From a virus (lineage: Duplodnaviria; Heunggongvirae; Uroviricota; Caudoviricetes), in the IMG/VR virus record IMGVR_UViG_2563366934_000004: 49,224 nucleotides of DNA. One strand, given 5' to 3'. Made by a program: the position numbers and the translations under genes. The notes under the pieces were generated by a model. It searched no databases and was not told the origin of the DNA. It saw only the letters and a list, made by a program, of their open reading frames with translations. Below are positions 3,308 to 43,250 of the stretch, one piece after another (position 1 is the first letter of the stretch; each line of letters begins with the position of its first letter).

Positions 3308-3883
3308 CTACGGCAGTGCTGGCCATTCAATATCCTGTGCAGTTGACGTATCAACACGGTTCAGCAATACCCGATACTTTTTCCATGCTTCCAGCAACGA
3401 GATTTCTTCCTCCGTTGCAATTTCCAGATCTGCAGCATCCTGAAGCGGCGCAATATGCTCACTGGCTACCTGCATCAGGTTGTTTTTTGTTTCTTCCGCC
3501 TCCCGGATCCGGAACAGTTTTTCTGCTTCCGTATCCTTCACCCAAGCTGTGCCGTTCCACTTCTGAAACTCCCCTTCCGGCGATAACCAGGTAACATTTT
3601 CCGGTAACGGACCGAGTTCAGAAATAAATAACGCGTCGCCGGAAGCCACGTCATAGACGGTTTTTCCCCGATGATCTTCAACGAGATGCCACGATGCCTC
3701 ATCACTGTTGAAAACAGCCACGAAGCCTGCCGGAATATCTGGCGGTGCAATATCGGTACTGTTTGCTGGCAGACCTGTATGAGGCGGAATATATGCGTCA
3801 CCTTCACCAATAAATTCATTAGTTCCGGCCAGCAGATTATAAATTTTTATGGTCCGTGCTTGTTCACTCATTCTGAATGCCAT
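3308..3883 (-). CDS. tfa: Tail fibre assembly protein (Tfa chaperone)
   Basis: 191 aa; ATG overlaps stf stop by 1 nt (TAATG); Tfa-like sequence immediately downstream of stf. Confidence 0.85.
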
Positions 3884-6846
3884 TATGCAAGCCTCACAAT
3901 ATAGTTAAATGCGATGTTTTTGACGGTGTTTTCCGCGTTACCAGCAGCGTTAACGGTGATGGTGTGTCCATGTGAACCAATCGCAACGGAGTGCGTATGA
4001 GCACCAATACTGACAGTATGTGCATGTGCGCCTGCGCTTGCAGCAGTGCCGGACAGCGAGTGGGTATGAGCACCATCTGATGATGTCTTCCCTGCATTAC
4101 GAGTCTGGCCACTACCGCTTGTTGTGCTCATAATCCCCGCGCTTAGATTTGAAATCGCGGTATAACCATTAGGGAAAATGCTCGTGTTCGTGCCACCAAA
4201 TGCACCGGAACTCTTGTGTTGGTGCGCACCGGCACTATTTGCAGTCCCGCTAATACTATGGGTATGCGCCCCGGTGTTATTCGTGGATTTGGTTCCGTAA
4301 TCAAACGACGATGTGTTTTTCGTCCCCAAATCCGTACTGGATGCGCTGGCGCTGTGGGTGTGCGATTTAATGCCGTCCTGTTCCTGAGACAATACGGCAC
4401 GACCACTGGCGGGTTTGCCCTTAATCGTCCAGCCACGCATATCAGGGATCACGCCTGACGGATAAGCGGCTGCAAGTTTCGGGTATGCAGATTTGTCAAA
4501 AGTCTGCCCCTGCATCAGGGCATAGCCAGACGGAACGGTATCTGATGGCCACGGGATTGGTGCGCCAGGCGGATAAAACTGCTCTGATGGCGTATAGAGT
4601 GAATAAACTGTACCGTCCGTTAACCCTTCCGGCTTATTAGCAGAATATGCTGGTGACGTATGAATCGTCACGCTGGCATTACTGGTATAATCCCATTGAA
4701 TATTTACACCAGTCGCATAATTTCCGATTGCAACGTAAATATCGTAAGTATCACCAGATGTATTGACCCAGGCAAAATTTGTAAACCCTGTCGATGTGCG
4801 CTGCCATAAAGCACCAGTAATCCCCTTCGGATTACCATTACCTGCACGCAAAACAAGTTCAGATATACCTGCCTGTTGAGGTGACCCCACGTTAAATCCC
4901 GCGCCACCAATCAACGTAATTGAAACAACAGAACTCGCCTGTGGCATGGTTACCGTTGCTAATTTGAACCAACCAGCACCACCGCTGAATGACATTGTTG
5001 TTGAGTTAAGCGTACCAATATCTTTCGGCGTCAGTGTTATATCAGCTGAAAGCGCCTTACCATTCACCTTACGGGCAGAAGGTACCCGACCATTCGCATT
5101 ATCATTAGCTGCTTTCACTGCTTTCGGTGTCGCGGCAAGCGTTTCAGATGCGCTGTTGGTTGCACTACTGAGCTGGACAATTCCTTTTTGTGTTGTCGTA
5201 GCGTCCTGAGCAGTATATTTCCCGTTAGCAAGGTCATAGGCTGCCTTTACCGACTTTGGCGTTGCCGCCAGCATTTCAGATGTGCTGTTGGTCGCGTTGC
5301 TAAGCTGAACTATCCCTTTCTGTGCTGTCGTTGCATCCTGTGCGGTGTATTTCCCGTTAGCCAGCTCATACGCGGCCTTAACGGCTTTTGGCGTTGCCGC
5401 CAGTGACTCGGAAGTGCTGTTAGTCGCACTGCTGAGCTGTACTATCCCCTTTTTCGTCGTGCTCGCATCCTCAAGCGCCACGGCGGATGCAATATCCTCT
5501 GCCCGTTTTGCCGCTGTCTCGGCGCGCGTTGCCGCGGATTCCGCCGTACTTTTGCTCTGAGCTGCCGCCGTCGCACTGCCAGCAGCCTCTGTCGCCTTCG
5601 TGGATGCCGTCGTGGCGCTGCCCCTCGCTGCTGACGCTTGTCTGGTCGCCTCATCTTTTGAAGCAGACGCAGATGATGCCGATGACGCCGCCGAACTGGC
5701 GGACGATGCGGCAGCCGTTTTTGAGGATTCTGCGCTGGTTTCCGACGCTTTCGCGTTCGTTTCGGATGTCTTCGCTGCGGAAGCAGACCTCGCTGCTGCG
5801 CTGGCCTGTTCAGTGGCTTCGCCAGCCTTCGTTGTGGCTGTTGAAGCGGATGATGCAGCACTTTCTGCCGATTTTCCGGCGGCGGAGGCACTGGCTGAGG
5901 CCTGCCCGGCACTTGTTGACGCGGCGCTGGCAGATGATGCAGCCGCTGTTTTTGAGTCTGCTGCTGCGGAGGCACTCTGTTCCGCTGCCGTTTCAGAAGA
6001 CTTAGCGTTCGTCTCGGACGTTTTTGCCGCTTTCGCGGAATTGCCTGCCGCCGTTGCCGAGGAAGCGGAACTACTGGCGCTCGAGGCTGCGCTCGTTTCT
6101 GATGATTTTGCCGCCTCTTTTGAAGCCGACGCATCCCTGGCTGAGGAGGCAGCTTCTGACGCTTTCGTGGTCGCGGTGGATGCAGAAGTGGCGGCTGATT
6201 GTTGTGACGCTGCCGCATTCGTTTCTGACGTTTTCGCCGCACCGGCACTGGTAGCCGCCGCGCTTTTTGAGGACTCTGCAGCGGCAGCACTTTTTGATGC
6301 TTCAGTGGCCTTTGTTGATGCCGTTCCTGCGCTGGAAGACGCTGACTGAGCCGACGACGCGGCCTGTCCGGCTGACGTGCTGGCTGCGCGTGCTGAGTCC
6401 GCAGCATCAGTCGCATGGGTTGCCGCCTCACGGGCTGATGTGCTGGCATCGCTGGCTGACTTCTTCGCGGCTGCCGTGTTCTGTGCCACCGCGGACGCGT
6501 TACGCGCCACCTCTTCCACCATCAGCTCAAAACGGCGCAGTGCCTCCGGACGGACATCATCCTCAGTCATGGCACCAAGAAAATCATTCAGCGTACCGGG
6601 TTGGGAATCTTCATACACGGTGATGGTCCCGGCATGTGACGGCGGGAATCCCTCCACCAACAGAATAACGCTGTACTGCCCGTACTCAACGTCCATGCTG
6701 TAACGCCCGGCTTCATCCGGATTTTCTGAGGCCAGCGTGTTCACCACCACCGTGGTGCTGTTACGTTTTGCTTTCAGCTGGATTGTGCAGTTCTGTACCG
6801 GTTTTCCTGTGCCGTCTTTCAGTACACCTGAAATCTTTACTGCCAT
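3883..6846 (-). CDS. stf: Side tail fibre protein (Stf)
   Basis: Start taken at [12 protein letters not shown] (ATG 6844-6846, GGGGTGA RBS). Conserved N-terminus, long Ala/Ser/Thr-rich central region, three tandem 44-aa repeats, His-rich HxH C-terminal receptor-binding region. Confidence 0.85.
5090..5490 (-). repeat. Three tandem ~132-bp (44-aa) coding repeats inside stf
   Basis: Near-identical 132-bp units (phase markers at 5143, 5275, 5407) encoding ...[44 protein letters not shown]... Confidence 0.8.
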
Positions 6847-6861
6847 ATTCACCCCACAAAA

Positions 6862-37053: not shown

Positions 37054-37795
37054 AGCCTGCTTCTCCTTGCCTTTCGGCACGTAAGAGGCTAACCTACATG
37101 TGTCTAGCATAGATATGGCCTCAGATTAATGTTAAGCGTCTTGCCGGACGCGTAATGTTAACTGGGGCTTTTCTCTATCTGCCTTTGGTGTTGATGCCCG
37201 AGGCAGATAGCCTCAAGCACCCGCAGCAATTCTACTTAACTACCGTTACCTCGCCAATATGAAATCAATCAGAAAGGTGATCCATAAGAACAACAGCAAG
37301 ACAATAAATTGCCATTACAGCAGCAATAGCCAGCGCACATTTGAGAACCAGCACCACAACCTCCTGTATTGGACGTACACCAGTCCTGATAAATATGAGG
37401 CTGTCTCGTCAGTGATTCAATACAACTACTGGGTATAGTTTCTATGATTTTGTTCTGTGGAAATGGAAAACAGCAACCAGTCACGACCAGCACTTCTTTA
37501 AACATGCCAAGTCACACGCAAGCCAACATTATAGTTCCCTTTGAGCGAGCAGATGAAGCTAGCAAAAATATTGATCACTTAGGATGCATTACTAACGTTG
37601 CTATGTGTTAACGAACAGGGAGTGGGTCATCAGCATAAATATTTATGCAGTAGGTTTCTTTTAGGACTAGATTAATCAAAAACATTTAGATAAAATTATA
37701 AAATCAAGAAATTGGTGGCAATTAATCTTTAATTGTGCCAGCTGAATTTCGTTATTATAGAAGATTAGCTTTTTTTTGAATATTTGGAGAGTAAA

Positions 37796-38491
37796 ATGTT
37801 AGAACCACCAAAGAGTTATAATGAAATGTTGCCTATGCTCCATAAGGCGACTTTTATTACTACATTTATATTTTACCTATCATTAGTCATTTATGGCTAC
37901 ATGCCATTGGTTGGCATTAATGCCAAGTATATCCCCCCCGTTAAAGACTACGAGGAATTTATTAAATGGATATTAACCTTTGGCATATTACCAATTGCAT
38001 CTTCAGTTTTTTGGTCAGTAATTAGTGGAGCTTTAGATCTACATAATAATGTAGCAAAAATTATTGGAATAAGGAAGATGTGGGATAGTCATTTAATTAT
38101 TAAACCATTAGCAAAAATTGCAGGCGTTACGAGAAAATTAACTACTGATGAATCTCACAAGGTAATGAGTAAACTGTATTACCCAGAAGTTAAAGAGTTA
38201 AAAGACAAACATTACGTTGAACTTTTCTGGAACAAAGTTTATTACTTTTGGGTTTTCTTTGAACATACAGTAATCGCATTTGTTACTATTTTAATAATAA
38301 GTATCGCCAAATTAACAAATATATTCTCTGTTACTGGCTCTTTAATTAATCTTTGGTTGTGGATTATTTCTCTTGTCGCATTTGACTTCCTTATTTTCAT
38401 AGCATCAGTTAAACCAAGAACAGAAAGCCAAGTAAGACAAATACCTGATAGCAAAATAAAAGAATTCTTTAACAATAACAATATTTTTTAA
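37796..38491 (+). CDS. Integral membrane protein (about 4 TM), unknown function; AT-rich cargo
   Basis: 231 aa from ATG 37796 (GGAG RBS 6 nt upstream); four strongly hydrophobic segments; AT-rich codon usage. Confidence 0.6.
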   Translation: MLEPPKSYNEMLPMLHKATFITTFIFYLSLVIYGYMPLVGINAKYIPPVKDYEEFIKWILTFGILPIASSVFWSVISGALDLHNNVAKIIGIRKMWDSHLIIKPLAKIAGVTRKLTTDESHKVMSKLYYPEVKELKDKHYVELFWNKVYYFWVFFEHTVIAFVTILIISIAKLTNIFSVTGSLINLWLWIISLVAFDFLIFIASVKPRTESQVRQIPDSKIKEFFNNNNIF

Positions 38492-38497
38492 ACGAGG

Positions 38498-39157
38498 TTG
38501 ATTTTGAATTATAAAATAAATGGAATAAACATACGTTCAGAAAATGCAGCGAAACCGCACACTATGCCATCTAACTATCTCTGTAAACAGATTGAAAGCA
38601 CTAATAAAAATGGCAATGCCCTTGATTTTGGATGTGGAAAACTTAGATATTCAGAACAATTAGTAAATAAATTTGAAACTGTGACATTTTTAGATTCCAG
38701 AAGACAACTAGAAAGAGTGCAAATTATCAGAGGTGTACAAACCACGATTCCAGATTACGTGATAAATAACTATAAGAATGCTAATATTGTTTCTTATGAA
38801 AATATAGATAAAATAACAAATCATTATGATTTCATACTTTGCGCAAACGTGCTTTCCGCAATTCCATGTGAATCCACAATTCACAAAGTCCTCAGTGCGA
38901 TTAGAGAATTATTAAAGAGTGATGGTGAAGCACTGATTGTCAATCAATACAAAAGTTCTTATTTCAAGAGGTACGAGAGCGGTATTAAACATTTGCATGG
39001 GTATATATACCAAAACTCTCGTAATGCTTTCTACTATGGTTTATTAGATGTGGATACTGTAAGTAAAATATGCTCAGATAATAATTTAGAAATAATAAAA
39101 TCATGGAGCAAAGCAGGTAGTTCATATGTGGTTGTTGGTAAACATATACATATTTAG
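38498..39157 (+). CDS. Class I SAM-dependent methyltransferase (small, Rossmann-type)
   Basis: Motif I LDFGCGKL and downstream FILCANVL motif; starts 7 nt after the membrane-protein stop (exact start uncertain: TTG 38498/38504 or ATG 38564). Confidence 0.6.
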   Translation: MILNYKINGINIRSENAAKPHTMPSNYLCKQIESTNKNGNALDFGCGKLRYSEQLVNKFETVTFLDSRRQLERVQIIRGVQTTIPDYVINNYKNANIVSYENIDKITNHYDFILCANVLSAIPCESTIHKVLSAIRELLKSDGEALIVNQYKSSYFKRYESGIKHLHGYIYQNSRNAFYYGLLDVDTVSKICSDNNLEIIKSWSKAGSSYVVVGKHIHI

Positions 39158-39471
39158 TTTATTTCAACAAATTATTAGAAAGAGTGATTTGCTTGTTAAT
39201 CATTAGCTCGGCAGTGCCGGATCAACATGACCCTGCCACTTAGGCCATTGCCGGTTTACCTACTTTTGTAAGGTTCAGCATGAAGTTTTTATATACTCTT
39301 CCTAATATCAATAGTGATGCTCGCTTATGTTAGCTGCTTCTTGTACATAGTAGCCTTCTCCGACAGTACTGCAATGAGCGGAGAGTAAAAGTCGATAAAC
39401 AATAAGGAGGTTCACAATAAATATTTCTCGGTGAAACTTTCAAAGCATTCTCTGTTTTGCTAAATCGACAA

Positions 39472-40371
39472 TTATAAATCAACAACATTTAGTGTTATAT
39501 CAATATTATTTAGCCTTGCAATCTCTGATGAATCACTTGCTATTTTAGCTTTTAATTTATCAATATTAATCATATCTTCATGGCTTATATAAACCATATC
39601 ACCTTGGTTAACTTTAGATTTGTTCACTATGGCTTGAATAACAGACAAATCATCCATTACACCTCTCATAAATTTCACCATGCTTTGATCTTTGAAGTCA
39701 GATATCGATTTTGAACGTTGCTTACGTTGAATTGTTCCTTTTGTAATTACTTCATTAATTTCTTTTAAACCAGTGAGCATATCAGACAGACTGCCTTCGC
39801 AACTCATCCGATGTTTTATTGCATTGCGATTAATAATATTGAGTATAATTTCGAGTGAATCTTTATCACTCCATGGATGTAATGATGTATAATCATGATG
39901 GCGTCGAATGGCGTCAATCATATCCTGGACCATATCTTCATCTGCTTTATCGCAAAGTTCATTCACGAAATAGCTGGGGTCGATTATTTTACAATAACTT
40001 GGAGTTAGGTATCTTGAGGCTTTACAAAAACCAAAAATATATAAAGTAGAGTATTTATCTTTCAGACTCTCTCCTATTTCATTTGTTTCCTCAAAAGATT
40101 CGATAGTTTTTTTAATTTTTGCTGGACTTGCATTCGTAGTAACTTGAACTGCTATCATGTTTTTATTATCAGCTAAATCAATGGCGGGAAAATTAACTTT
40201 AATCTGATTCATGTTTACCAGTTCACCCATTTTCAGCGCGCGAAACATAAAGATGGTCAATGACTCAATTATTCTTTCCATGTCATGAAAGCCTGCCTGT
40301 TTGCGTTGCGCGATATAAAGCTGGAGTAGTGCAATATCACTCTGTAAGTTTCTAATAAGTGGATCAATCAT
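39472..40371 (-). CDS. Hypothetical 299-aa protein, N-terminal region possibly SMEK-like
   Basis: ATG 40369-40371; AT-rich; N-terminal motif NFPAIDLADNKNMIAVQVTTN recalled (unverified) as characteristic of SMEK-type N-terminal domains; convergent with the membrane/MTase pair. Confidence 0.55.
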   Translation of the reverse strand: MIDPLIRNLQSDIALLQLYIAQRKQAGFHDMERIIESLTIFMFRALKMGELVNMNQIKVNFPAIDLADNKNMIAVQVTTNASPAKIKKTIESFEETNEIGESLKDKYSTLYIFGFCKASRYLTPSYCKIIDPSYFVNELCDKADEDMVQDMIDAIRRHHDYTSLHPWSDKDSLEIILNIINRNAIKHRMSCEGSLSDMLTGLKEINEVITKGTIQRKQRSKSISDFKDQSMVKFMRGVMDDLSVIQAIVNKSKVNQGDMVYISHEDMINIDKLKAKIASDSSEIARLNNIDITLNVVDL

Positions 40372-40623: not shown

Positions 40624-41046
40624 TCACTTCAATAAATATCGAGCATTTCCCTGATAGAATGCTAGTATGCGCTGCATAACTTCACTCTTCCGGCACTCGC
40701 GACAGATTATGTTCTGACGCCTGTCGTAGCGACGTATTTCTCCGTCAGGTAATGACCAGATAAGGTCCGGATCAACCGCAGATGGTTCCTTCAGCTTTGC
40801 CCTTGAGAGCTTTTTACGGGCATTTTGCCAGTCCTTACGCGCCTGTTCAGACGGGAATAACCCGTAACCAGAGTTGTATACATCGCCGCTGGCAACCAGC
40901 TCTCTTGCGAGAACGCTCATCAGATATCTTGTCGCACCTGTCTTGACTTCCAGTTGCCGTAACGTCTCACGACCGCTCTGGCGCACGAGTTCCACCACCT
41001 GCCCTTTAATTTTTTCCCGCTCTTCTTGTGTAAAAACTTTTGCCAC
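40624..41046 (-). CDS. Hypothetical protein downstream of replication initiator
   Basis: 140-aa ORF, probable GTG start; contains CRECRK; function unknown. Confidence 0.45.
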   Translation of the reverse strand: MAKVFTQEEREKIKGQVVELVRQSGRETLRQLEVKTGATRYLMSVLARELVASGDVYNSGYGLFPSEQARKDWQNARKKLSRAKLKEPSAVDPDLIWSLPDGEIRRYDRRQNIICRECRKSEVMQRILAFYQGNARYLLK

Positions 41047-41086: not shown

Positions 41087-42052
41087 TTATCCTCTGAAAC
41101 CAGGCGGAATTTCTGTATCCGGTTCAGAAATATGATTAACACAACGCTGTACAGGTGAACGCCCCAGGCGGATGACCAGTTCGTCCCATTTTTCGCGGAG
41201 CTTTGACGGGCTCATGATGTTTTTTACCCAGAACGGATCCCGCTGTACCCGACCAAACATTTCACAAATTTGTCTGTGGCTTCTGCCATCCAGCATCCGC
41301 ATTGTGCGCACATCATTGGCCCAGACAGTCCAGTTAGGCTCTTTTGGTCGCATGATCTCGCCATCATCACTGGCGGCCTGTTCGTAGAGACCCACGATCC
41401 GCCCCCATATCCACTGCGCACACGCCAGATCCTCCTGGCTACCCCACTGGCGTTTTTTCGCACTAAACACAACTGCGCCAGGGTGCCGGATTAAAAAATC
41501 CTGTTCAGCCGTCTGCGGGTCCGGTTGCGAAGCTTCCGGACGAAAAGTGTTTTTATTCTCTGTAGTAATCTCTGTTGTATTCTCTGTAGGATCATCGGGC
41601 CATTTTGACCCGATGACATTGGGTCGTTTTGAACCAATGGAGCGTTTCATTTTGACCTCTTCCATCGTGTCATTTTGACCTGATGGAGCGGCGCATTTTG
41701 AACCGATGGATTCGCTCAATTTGCCATCATCTAAAAGCTCGCTCCCATAGTTAATCGTGTAGAAATTGGTCATATCGCGCTTTGATTTATTGAGCTTTTC
41801 ACAACGCAAGAGCCCCAGCGTTTTCAGACTTGCAAACGCGCGCTTTAACGTTGACTCTGACCAGAATGGGAACTGTTCCAGCCATTGTTCCGTTGTGTTG
41901 TAAATCCAGCGAACACCATCACATTCCATGCCGGAATTGGTATCTCTCAACCAGTAATGCAACTGCTGCAACACAATGGCTTCATTTAAGCCAATCTTCA
42001 TCGCAAGCTGTGTGTTTATAACCAGTGGGCGTTCAGCAAAAAGAAGGCTCAT
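41087..42052 (-). CDS. Replication initiator (lambda O-like architecture, iterons inside gene)
   Basis: About 321 aa from ATG 42050-42052 (MSLLFAERPLV...); internal SIGSK repeats encoded by the DNA iterons; position downstream of cro-like dicC. Confidence 0.6.
   Translation of the reverse strand: MSLLFAERPLVINTQLAMKIGLNEAIVLQQLHYWLRDTNSGMECDGVRWIYNTTEQWLEQFPFWSESTLKRAFASLKTLGLLRCEKLNKSKRDMTNFYTINYGSELLDDGKLSESIGSKCAAPSGQNDTMEEVKMKRSIGSKRPNVIGSKWPDDPTENTTEITTENKNTFRPEASQPDPQTAEQDFLIRHPGAVVFSAKKRQWGSQEDLACAQWIWGRIVGLYEQAASDDGEIMRPKEPNWTVWANDVRTMRMLDGRSHRQICEMFGRVQRDPFWVKNIMSPSKLREKWDELVIRLGRSPVQRCVNHISEPDTEIPPGFRG
41592..41712. repeat. Origin-like iteron array (5 copies, 23-24 bp period)
   Basis: CATTTTGACCCGATG (41601), CGTTTTGAACCAATGG (41625), CATTTTGACCTC (41648), CATTTTGACCTGATGG (41671), CATTTTGAACCGATGG (41694); followed by a more AT-rich stretch. 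Confidence 0.65.
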
Positions 42053-42554
42053 AATTCCATCCAGCTTTTTGTTGGTATTGCTGTCGATACGCAAGTTTGA
42101 AAGCAATTGCTTTTTCTATAAGTTCGTCAGTTTCACGATCCACTACGGCAGGATCAGCAAAAAGCAGTCCGGACTCCACCACATCGCCATATTCTTTGTT
42201 TAACCCGGCGATCATGTACGTGATGCTTTTTCCGTCACTAATTTCACGATACAACCTGAAATCATTAATCCGGATAGCCTCCATAATTGCAGGCACTAGC
42301 GCCGTGAACTTTTCACGCTTATCCCTGGTGTCGATAGCCTTCCAGCGTTCGAATATCTTCACTCGATTAACGCCAAGCGCTCGCTGATCAACCGCGCCAC
42401 CTTCATCTGTGACACGCTGAACATCGATGTTCGGGCGCTCTTTCAAAGCCCAGAATGCTTCAGTGATTAATATCGTCGCCTGCTCCTGTGTCATTCCTGG
42501 TCGACATATCCAGGCATCCAGAGCCTCACGAGCCTGTTCAGGAGTGATTTTCAT
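42033..42554 (-). CDS. Hypothetical early-region protein (between cro-like and replication genes)
   Basis: 173 aa, ATG 42552-42554; overlaps start of the O-like gene by about 20 nt. Confidence 0.5.
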   Translation of the reverse strand: MKITPEQAREALDAWICRPGMTQEQATILITEAFWALKERPNIDVQRVTDEGGAVDQRALGVNRVKIFERWKAIDTRDKREKFTALVPAIMEAIRINDFRLYREISDGKSITYMIAGLNKEYGDVVESGLLFADPAVVDRETDELIEKAIAFKLAYRQQYQQKAGWNYEPSFC

Positions 42555-42765
42555 TGTTCAACCGCCCCGCCCGCTTCGTCTTACGATATTCGTCATAAAC
42601 CTTGGGATCATACAGAAGCTCGCCGCCAGATGCCTCCTGTAGACGCATCGCGCGACCTTCAGGAACTAGCTCTTGCCATTGAGAAACAGCAGATGGGTCA
42701 ACGCCAGCAGCTTTCGCTACTTTGGCTTTCGTACCGTAAAAATTAATTACGTCTGATTTAAACAT
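42538..42765 (-). CDS. dicC: Cro-like regulator DicC
   Basis: 75 aa from ATG 42763-42765 with GGAGG RBS; ...LVPEGRAMRLQEASGGELLYDPKVYDEYRKTKRAGRLNNENHS; divergent from dicA. Confidence 0.8.
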   Translation of the reverse strand: MFKSDVINFYGTKAKVAKAAGVDPSAVSQWQELVPEGRAMRLQEASGGELLYDPKVYDEYRKTKRAGRLNNENHS

Positions 42766-42842
42766 CGCACCTCCAATATTGAGTTTTCTCAATGCTAATC
42801 ACTCAAGGAATCTCAAGTCAAGGGTTATTAAGATATCTAAAT
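42766..42842. promoter_or_regulatory. dicA-dicC divergent promoter/operator region
   Basis: 77-bp intergenic between divergent repressor genes; contains palindrome AGATATCT within TTAAGATATCTAAAT. Confidence 0.4.
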
Positions 42843-43250
42843 ATGAACGAGAAAACTTTAGGTCAACGCATTAGAGAAAGACGTAAGCAGGTAGGCTTAA
42901 GTCAAAACGGTTTAAGCAAAGCTGCTGGCGTATCTGGCTCATCAATTTCATTATGGGAAAGTGACCATACAGCCCCGCGCGGGCAAAATTTGCATCGCCT
43001 CGCCGAGGTATTGCAATGTTCACCAACCTGGATACTGTTTGGCGACGAGGACAAAACACCAGCTCCCCCTGTTTCACTCGATAGTACCCTAGACTTATCG
43101 GAAGATGAGTTAGAGATGCTGCGTTTGTATCGCGCACTTCCTAAATCAGAGCAACAAGCACAACTCAGCGAACTCCGCGCCCGCGTTGAGAATTTTAATC
43201 GCCTGTTCACCGAGCTATTAGAGGCTCGCAAACGCAACAAGCATCAATAA
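42843..43250 (+). CDS. dicA: Repressor DicA (XRE-family HTH)
   Basis: 135 aa from ATG 42843; HTH region and VLQCSPTWILFGDEDK...LSELRARVENFNRLF match recalled DicA. Confidence 0.9.
   Translation: MNEKTLGQRIRERRKQVGLSQNGLSKAAGVSGSSISLWESDHTAPRGQNLHRLAEVLQCSPTWILFGDEDKTPAPPVSLDSTLDLSEDELEMLRLYRALPKSEQQAQLSELRARVENFNRLFTELLEARKRNKHQ

Follow-up and report, generated by a model that had tools for sequence, protein, structure and literature searches.

A putative lambda-plan replication origin within the gene of a DnaT-tailed initiator in a lambdoid Escherichia coli prophage module without a phage helicase loader

Introduction

Replication origins composed of iterons and an AT-rich block within the initiator gene itself are known for lambda O and for SPP1 G38P, and the C-terminal domain region of lambda O binds the P protein. 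In the lambda record, the four iterons are found at nt 349 to 433 of O with a spacing of 20/24/23, and the AT-rich region comes next. Here, we describe an array of this kind in a stretch of 49,224 nucleotides from a Caudoviricetes virus (IMG/VR record IMGVR_UViG_2563366934_000004), which we refer to as a whole as the window. An earlier note on the same DNA had described five iterons inside an O-like gene as an origin of the lambda type and had remarked that no gene of the size of a helicase loader follows. Our analysis supports this reading, by which the window would have a lambda-type origin in its initiator gene and no phage loader.

Among 314 lambdoid phages, 34 have an O homologue alone, LLS among them, and their replication "is not yet understood" (Genome Res 2025, PMC12315714); DnaT is named 0 times in that article. 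How DnaT recruits DnaB/DnaC is itself stated as unknown in the available portions of PMC4132743 and PMC13377028. About one tenth of the enterobacterial lambdoid phages are loader-less, and in the field of replication restart the recruitment of DnaB-DnaC by DnaT is a recognised gap. The origin that we describe is textbook in kind; the initiator that it encodes shares a 20-residue peptide with DnaT, and this makes both questions testable.

Results and discussion

The iteron array

The motif CRTTTTGAMC occurs on the plus strand at 41601, 41625, 41648, 41671, and 41694, with a core spacing of 24/23/23/23 bp (the cores span 41601 to 41703), and has no other match in the window. Dinucleotide-preserving shuffles of the window gave a mean of 0.75 matches and a maximum of 3, with five or more in 0 of 100, and the five iterons at 23 to 24 bp are present as the earlier note had claimed. 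The repeat-finder check that it had proposed agrees, as the 23-nt family was recovered with this same spacing both by a repeat finder and by Tandem Repeats Finder (TRF). Neither repeat finding nor the count of core motifs revealed a comparable array elsewhere in the window, and DnaA boxes are neither found near the array nor enriched in the window (16 found versus 12 expected).

On the sense strand and in gene order, the good sites read CCATCGGTTCAAAATGCGCC, CCATCAGGTCAAAATGACACGATGG, GAAGAGGTCAAAATGAAACGC, CATTGGTTCAAAACGACCCAATG, and CATCGGGTCAAAATGGCCCGATG. A sixth copy, degenerate but in register (41714 to 41725), had been overlooked, so that the array consists of five good copies and one degenerate copy, each about two helical turns (23 to 24 bp) from the next. 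The inverted repeat reported at one end of the array is real (41592 to 41616, 11-nt arms, 91% complementary in the repeat finder); it is the dyad of the iteron itself and not a flank. The cores correspond to nt 352 to 450 of the gene and the six iterons to nt 322 to 460. Together with the AT-rich block, the array codes for amino acids (aa) ~108 to 171, the linker between the N-terminal and C-terminal domains of the initiator. The SIGSK/VIGSK repeats that this DNA had been said to encode are found in three of the five good copies (SIGSK, SIGSK, and VIGSK), while the other two code for SGQND and EVKMK. As a period of 23 bp changes the reading frame between copies, a peptide repeat cannot explain the array. 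The iteron repeat is a feature of the DNA, from which the linker peptide follows as a by-product.

The AT-rich stretch of the earlier description also exists, although at lower coordinates than those given for it. It is clearest at 41540 to 41591 (GC = 0.30), adjoining the last iteron on the gene-downstream side, while the DNA after 41712 is mildly AT-rich at most. Positions 41550 to 41589 are the lowest-stability 40-mer of the initiator gene, and repeat finding detected within the block a 12-bp repeat in three copies, a motif that is enriched in the window.

Comparison with ori-lambda reveals the same plan. The position in the gene, the dyad-symmetric iterons, and the AT-rich block on the gene-downstream side are alike; the iterons of the window and those of lambda have in common a TCAAAA(C/T)G centre flanked by inverted arms, and in both cases the array is coded in a linker that separates a predicted DNA-binding N-terminal domain from a C-terminal domain. 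A difference is that the AT-rich block of the window, unlike that of lambda, is composed of conserved 12-mers. With gene position, spacing, dyad form, AT-rich block, linker context, and conservation across genera all in agreement, the lambda ori architecture put forward earlier appears to be correct, and we consider it very probable that the array is the replication origin of the window phage.

Architecture of the initiator

The strand of the earlier description had to be corrected, as the initiator gene lies on the minus strand and probably starts at the ATG at 42052. The program-listed open reading frame (ORF) is longer (41087 to 42106) and begins with a TTG at 42106 that is probably unused; in phages mEp460_ev081 and HannyBb, the same 966-nt coding sequence is annotated with the equivalent of the ATG at 42052 as its start. 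The initiator gene read from this ATG and the end of the cII/YdaT-like gene have 20 nt in common (42033 to 42052), which suggests translational coupling.

The whole protein matches PHROG 391, "replication initiation O-like" (E 3.5e-92). We found no Pfam family in it even at E = 10, and the NCBIfam scan gave nothing besides the tail. It has more than 4,000 homologues, all of them unnamed and without Pfam domains. From the comparisons that follow, the initiator is a predicted chimera in which a DnaD/RepA_N-like winged helix is followed by a lambda-O-type C-terminal domain and then by the final ~20 residues of E. coli DnaT.

The N-terminal domain was modelled by AlphaFold2 (AF2) as an H-H-E-E-H-H-E-E winged helix at aa 10 to 100, with a predicted local distance difference test (pLDDT) score of 60 to 81. 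Its best Foldseek matches, which are weak, are the N-terminal domains of the staphylococcal plasmid RepA proteins 5kbj and 4pql, which are DNA-bound N-terminal domains of RepA_N initiators. Residues 19 to 186 match PHROG 6493, "DnaD-like helicase loader" (E 1e-36), and over aa 3 to 127 the protein is 44 to 46% identical to Staphylococcus phage initiators (tblastn). Phage_rep_O (PF04492) does not match this domain at E = 10, versus 5.7e-36 for lambda O itself, and there is no profile similarity to the N-terminus of lambda O (hhalign probability 0.2). The term "O-like" used earlier for the gene is therefore right for the C-terminal domain, which is 34% identical to lambda O over aa 147 to 294 (BLASTP, E 3e-27), and not for the N-terminal one. 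The homology of the C-terminal domain covers lambda O residues ~170 to 270 (BLASTP and alignment); Foldseek with the low-confidence AF2 model gave nothing for it. The top phmmer match against the PDB, the glycosyl hydrolase YteR (E 3e-3), was discarded as a chance local match in this domain.

Between the two domains, aa 109 to 175 are unstructured in AF2 (pLDDT ~30) and coincide closely with the residues coded by the iterons and 12-mers, which places the origin where the protein tolerates nearly any sequence.

The extreme C-terminus also differs from that of lambda O. The W-rich acidic end of the latter (..NTDWIYGVDL) is replaced by SEPDTEIPPGFRG, and the last 20 to 21 residues match the C-terminus of DnaT (PDB 2ru8, 6aep, and 9zbt_D; phmmer). 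Only positions 160 to 179 of the NCBIfam DnaT model are matched, at 16 bits versus a cut-off of 201. The shared pattern is (R/Q)(D/C)VN.(I/V)S.PD..IP.GFRG, which takes the form ..VN.VSEPD..IPPGFRG in DnaT. This match explains the RAST-type label "Primosomal protein I" carried by these phage genes, for example in mEp460_ev081. The last 20 to 21 residues are all that is shared with E. coli DnaT (protein i), whose N-terminal domain, acidic linker, and three-helix DNA-binding domain are missing from the initiator; accordingly, the Pfam scan found no match to PF17948, the three-helix single-stranded DNA-binding domain of DnaT. Judged by this domain composition, the protein is predicted to be an origin-binding initiator and not a restart factor.

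The DnaT-like tail and the absence of a helicase loader

Downstream of the initiator, we found no P-, DnaC-, or helicase-like gene in the ORF list or by Pfam and PHROG searches, only the 140-aa ORF, just as the earlier note had stated. HannyBb, whose module is 97% identical, has no helicase, loader, or primase annotation in its whole genome. In the sister module L004, the Cro-YdaT-initiator-DUF977 layout is the same except for a Phage_lambda_P gene between initiator and DUF977, and the initiator ends in DWNSADGWEDVL, which aligns with the DWIYGVDL of lambda O. The cro-cII-initiator-ren module exists in two natural versions, one with a lambda-like tail and P and the other with a DnaT tail and without P.

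To extend the comparison, 80 diverse loci were collected by a scan with the C-terminal-domain alignment from one genome per species, and reference loci were added; species genomes were scanned since the relatives in viral contigs were only 96 to 100% identical copies. A P-like gene overlapped none of the 20 loci with a DnaT-like tail and 41 of the 45 with a lambda-like tail (..DW..G..L type), an association with a Fisher p of 4e-13 when shared ancestry is left uncorrected. From these loci, the absence of a loader is apparently not a local oddity and correlates with the DnaT-like tail. DnaC-like proteins (carrying GTGKN) were found with jackhmmer seeded with the protein of L091, a locus in which a DnaT-tailed initiator is followed by a DnaC-like gene.

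The same tail is found on initiators of quite different build. In Rac, YdaU (DUF1376 build) is followed by the DnaC-like YdaV; in Gifsy-1, the O protein (Phage_rep_O build) is followed by a DnaC homologue; and in Stx phage 75/02, gp15, without a Pfam family, is followed by the DnaC-like loader gp16. These three resemble the window in the DnaT tail and the early-operon layout and differ from it in the downstream DnaC paralogue, which the window module lacks, and in the N-terminal domain, which is DUF1376 in YdaU and Phage_rep_O in Gifsy-1. No loader comes next in SPN1S, whose gp46 combines the whole DnaT DNA-binding domain with the tail, nor after the tailed proteins of a Klebsiella phage and of Tritos (gp36), both without a Pfam family, nor after SfII gp41. 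LLS gp44, the O protein, ends in ...PVDTKIPEGFRG, which is DnaT-like, and has no loader gene either.

The "O-only" modules of LLS and SfII resemble the window in having a single initiator gene with internal iterons, no helicase or loader, and an IP(E/A)GFRG end. Their iterons are different: LLS gene 44 (L174:10516-10589) and SfII gene 41 (L176, gene nt ~318 to 360) have a 15-bp array, GC(A/G)TCAAAATCTGA, that codes for SDASK repeats, and their N-terminal domain is O-type, other than that of the window. Here, the period of 15 bp keeps the frame, which is why the SDASK peptide repeat is regular.

Overall, the tail is borne by at least five architectures: the window type (DnaD-like plus lambda-O C-terminal domain), Gifsy-1, Rac YdaU, SPN1S, and the LLS/SfII type. 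It is possible, although we rate it at somewhat below an even chance, that the last ~20 residues of DnaT are a portable recruitment peptide for DnaC-type loading that has been captured by at least five unrelated initiator architectures. A literature search for the tail motif PPGFRG and for YdaU/YdaV replication found no paper on the function of the DnaT-like tail.

Proposed mechanism

We infer iteron binding, unwinding, and the contact made by the tail from the sequence and the gene context. Dimers of the N-terminal winged helix would bind the six 23-bp dyad-symmetric sites, five good and one decayed. The resulting nucleoprotein complex, together with early transcription of the rightward type, which would come from the cro side and pass through the origin, would open the AT-rich block at 41540 to 41591. 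Host DnaB would then be loaded without a phage P by a protein that has kept a lambda-O-type C-terminal domain and exchanged its extreme C-terminus for that of DnaT. The unstructured tail may recruit host DnaB-DnaC either directly via DnaC or via the DnaT/PriA restart machinery, which would make a phage loader unnecessary; phages that encode a DnaC paralogue would use that one instead.

Taken as a whole, the account of a lambda-plan origin in a Rac/mEp460-type lambdoid E. coli prophage, with a loader-less module and a DnaT-tailed initiator, seems probable to us. For the role of the tail our confidence is lower. We give even odds to the DnaT-like tail being what replaces P, and only tentatively do we name DnaC or DnaB-DnaC as its direct partner. 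If this reading of the tail is true, it would account for the "O-only" lambdoid phages and would point to the element through which DnaB-DnaC is passed from E. coli DnaT to the restart primosome; a phage with such a tail would need a DnaC paralogue alone, or no loader at all.

Conservation of the array and of the N-terminal domain

Across the 80 species-genome loci, the type of iteron tracks the type of N-terminal domain and not the C-terminal domain or the tail. All loci with a matching N-terminal domain have TCAAAA at gene nt ~352/375/398/421/445, whatever their C-terminal domain or tail, while loci with other N-terminal domains lack that pattern and some of them bear the 15-bp array instead. 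The co-evolution of origin and linker peptide suggested in the earlier note calls for a refinement, since it is the N-terminal domain type that covaries with the iterons.

When relatives from Escherichia, Citrobacter, Rahnella, Edwardsiella, Proteus, and Scandinavium are aligned, the cores hold their register, whereas the spacers and the encoded peptides diverge (majority fraction of 0.84 in cores versus 0.68 in spacers, Mann-Whitney p = 1e-5). The family consensus is the palindrome CCATCnGGTCA-AAA-TGACCnGATGG, and at the position of the degenerate iteron 1, relatives have GAGGTCAAA(G/T)TGACC, i.e., a good iteron. Among the most distant relatives, conservation within the DNA of the gene is highest in the 12-mer block, with 73 to 81% identity versus 52 to 55% for the N-terminal domain and 27 to 36% for the C-terminal domain.

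Outside this group, initiators of Staphylococcus, Geobacillus, Listeria, and Pseudomonas phages share 44 to 52% identity with the N-terminal domain. The gp20 of Staphylococcus phage P954 (L175:2812-2950) has three sites at the corresponding gene position, namely CATCGGGACAAAATGGCCCGACG and variants of it, 22 to 23 bp apart (chance expectation of three such near-identical sites, 0.01) and followed by ACAGAGA-type repeats; CATCGGGACAAAATGGCCCGACG is near-identical to iteron 6 of the window. Gene 051 of Pseudomonas phage AF (L177:2815-2925) has 12-mers of the form TACAGAGATTACTACAGAGACTAC at the same gene position. The P954 initiator, like those of the SPP1 G38P type, has the origin inside its own gene. 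Its partners are a small G39P-like loader and a phage DnaB-type helicase, while AF has a primase-helicase, and neither of the two initiators has the lambda-type C-terminal domain or the DnaT tail of the window initiator.

Judging from these alignments, the N-terminal domain and its iterons and 12-mers evidently travel together as one cassette. This cassette may be one mobile unit across phages of Enterobacteria, Pseudomonas, and Staphylococcus, where it is joined to four different solutions for helicase recruitment. That the iterons are nearly identical in an E. coli prophage and a Staphylococcus phage provides an unusually clean example in which an initiator domain has moved across phyla in company with its DNA site.

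Alternative explanations

In the main rival, the tail corresponds to the DnaT segment responsible for docking on PriA or for entry into a DnaT filament. It would still stand in for P, but with the PriA/PriB/DnaT restart primosome as the machinery that it recruits, and loading would be PriA-dependent as in pBR322 or phage Mu. The available portions of a 2026 paper based on cryo-electron microscopy (cryo-EM; PMC13377028) supply arguments for this route, and these count at the same time against the tail as a direct recruiter of DnaC: the C-terminal domain of DnaT docks on PriA via a conserved hydrophobic surface, and it is the N-terminal domain of DnaT, not the tail, that is proposed to recruit DnaB/DnaC. 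The presence of the entire DnaT DNA-binding domain beside the tail in SPN1S gp46 points in the same direction. However, residues 160 to 179 are not named as a PriA interface in the available text of that paper, and a phage DnaC paralogue comes directly after four unrelated tail-bearing initiators, for which a DnaC-type partner is the simpler fit. We regard the PriA route as rather unlikely, although it stands well ahead of the remaining alternatives.

Other observations weigh against parts of the account that we favour. On the side of the protein, the AF2 model, built from 15 homologues, is of low overall quality (mean pLDDT 56), although it clearly separates the N-terminal domain, the unstructured stretch, the helical C-terminal domain, and the tail, and the Foldseek matches to RepA are weak (E 7e-3 to 1e-2). 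On the side of the DNA, strong dyad symmetry is found in just two of the six sites. Natural alleles (P0018-P0023, L173:3293-3470; E. coli GCA_054853035.1) have a clean in-frame deletion of 93 bp (31 aa) that fuses the second and sixth sites, the outermost good iterons, removes four iterons, and leaves one good and one decayed site in a Cro-YdaT-initiator-DUF977 module that is otherwise intact. A deletion that joins two iterons indicates that the repeats recombine, and the persistence of these alleles with an intact frame implies that the full array is dispensable for survival of the gene in prophages; the prophages concerned may be cryptic.

As for the tail, the strength of its association with the absence of P is open to the shared ancestry of the loci, and the division into two classes is not complete. 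A third class, found in Proteus, Edwardsiella, Sodalis, Morganella, and Providencia (L110-L113, L115-L120, L122, and L159), has the lambda-O-type C-terminal domain with an extension of ~60 to 80 aa that ends in ...WNSIW(K/T)Q..., without a Pfam match, and has neither P nor a DnaT tail, so that the DnaT tail is not the sole loader-less solution; several of these loci share the N-terminal domain and iterons of the window. Four more loci (L124, L126, L134, and L158) have a lambda-like tail of the FNNTDWINGVFDENLR type and no detectable P-like gene within 2.5 kb. DopC joins an O-type helix-turn-helix N-terminus to a DnaT C-terminal motif and is nevertheless partnered by the P-like DopE (Brezellec et al. 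2017, PMC5509034); it differs from the window in being a domesticated bacterial gene without iterons, while the window has iterons and no P. Finally, removal of residues 154 to 179 from DnaT altered its single-stranded DNA binding just modestly (PMC4132743).

A second alternative is that the array is an origin by descent, and the copy in the window is inactive. Rac-type prophages are frequently defective, and the alleles with a single iterated site just described would fit such a decay, but in the window all five good iterons and the 12-mers are retained and the initiator gene is intact, the module is 96 to 97% identical to those of the isolated phages HannyBb and mEp460_ev081, and some ORFs have sizes that fit head, tail, lysis, and integrase genes. 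We judge a cryptic copy to be improbable.

Slightly less probable still is that the iterons are genuine initiator sites that serve autoregulation or copy control only, with replication starting elsewhere. Plasmid iterons do both jobs. Yet the array adjoins the least stable DNA of the gene, a block that is strongly conserved at the DNA level, and copies ori-lambda in position and order; no comparable array is found elsewhere in the window, in which DnaA boxes are not enriched.

The 140-aa DUF977/Ren-like protein could be proposed as the missing helicase loader, as it is encoded by the sole directly following gene, at the place of P in the operon. We rejected this candidate and consider it very improbable: the protein is homologous to lambda Ren, members of its family occur together with P in L004 and alongside DnaC-like loaders in Rac and Stx 75/02, and it is absent from L005, L006, LLS, and SfII, modules with the same tail and no loader.

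Lastly, selection for a SIGSK peptide repeat, suggested by the threefold occurrence of IGSK, is hardly credible as the source of the periodicity, given that 23 is not a multiple of three, that SGQND and EVKMK come from other frames, that relatives keep the DNA cores and differ in the peptides, and that the region is unstructured in AF2.

Neighbouring genes

The gene order of the module is Cro-like, cII/YdaT-like, initiator, and DUF977 (Table 1), and the order cro-cII-initiator-(P)-ren is common to the window and lambda. The Cro-like and cII/YdaT-like genes, operon-upstream of the initiator, match PHROG 409 and 163. The hidden Markov model (HMM) search proposed earlier for the 140-aa protein returned a DUF977/Ren-like family and not a loader, with Pfam DUF977 at E 1.7e-30 (106 bits versus a cut-off of 22) and PHROG 142, "Ren-like exclusion protein," at E 1.5e-46. 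In three rounds of jackhmmer, DUF977 (the YdaW/LygF family) reached lambda Ren (L003:2381-2671) at E 2e-20, and DUF977 appears to be the Ren family by another name. By this homology, the 140-aa ORF occupies the place of ren, with P missing from between it and the initiator.

Table 1. Features of the replication module and adjacent region. Positions are those of the window; iterons are numbered in gene order, and their arm symmetry was counted by hand from the sequences.
Feature	Position	Strand	Residues	Remarks
Replication initiator gene	41087-42052	-	321 aa	From ATG at 42052
N-terminal winged-helix domain, DnaD-like/RepA_N-like, putatively DNA-binding	41717-42052	-	aa 1-112	
Iteron 1, degenerate	41709-41731			Core GGCAAATTGAGC at 41714-41725; in 23-bp register, one step gene-upstream
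Iteron 2	41686-41708			Sense strand CCATCGGTTCAAAATGCGCCGCT
Iteron 3	41663-41685			Sense strand CCATCAGGTCAAAATGACACGATGG; arm symmetry 5/7
Iteron 4	41640-41662			Sense strand GAAGAGGTCAAAATGAAACGCTC; core retained, arms degenerate
Iteron 5	41617-41639			Sense strand CATTGGTTCAAAACGACCCAATG; arm symmetry 6/7
Iteron 6	41593-41615			Perfect dyad CATCGGG-TCAAAATGG-CCCGATG; adjoins AT-rich block
Putative DNA unwinding element	41540-41591			Three tandem 12-mers at 41554-41589, sense-strand TACAGAGAATAC type; encodes TENTTEITTENK
Lambda-O-type C-terminal domain	41168-41497	-	aa 186-295	Helical in AF2 (aa 183-295)
DnaT-like C-terminal tail	41090-41152	-	aa 301-321	VQRCVNHISEPDTEIPPGFRG; unstructured in AF2
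DUF977/Ren-like ORF	40624-41046	-	140 aa	At lambda ren position
cII/YdaT-like gene	42033-42554	-		Pfam YdaT_toxin/PHROG
Cro-like gene	42538-42792	-		Pfam P22_Cro/PHROG
Divergent CI-type repressor gene	42792-43250	+		Pfam HTH_3, Phage_CI_repr (weak)
SMEK-domain protein	39472-40371	-	299 aa	PF21941, E 1.6e-22
S-adenosylmethionine (SAM)-methyltransferase-like protein	38498-39157	+	219 aa	
ORF without family	37784-38491	+	235 aa	

A low-GC island (37784 to 40371), which contains the last three entries of Table 1, separates the replication module from the Q region. Its position is occupied by other genes in mEp460_ev081 and HannyBb, and it could be a moron or defence cassette. Far from the module, a tandem repeat with a 132-bp unit (2.4 copies, 79% matches) is found at 5138 to 5448, within a 989-aa ORF on the minus strand (3883 to 6852), presumably the gene of a tail fibre or side tail fibre.

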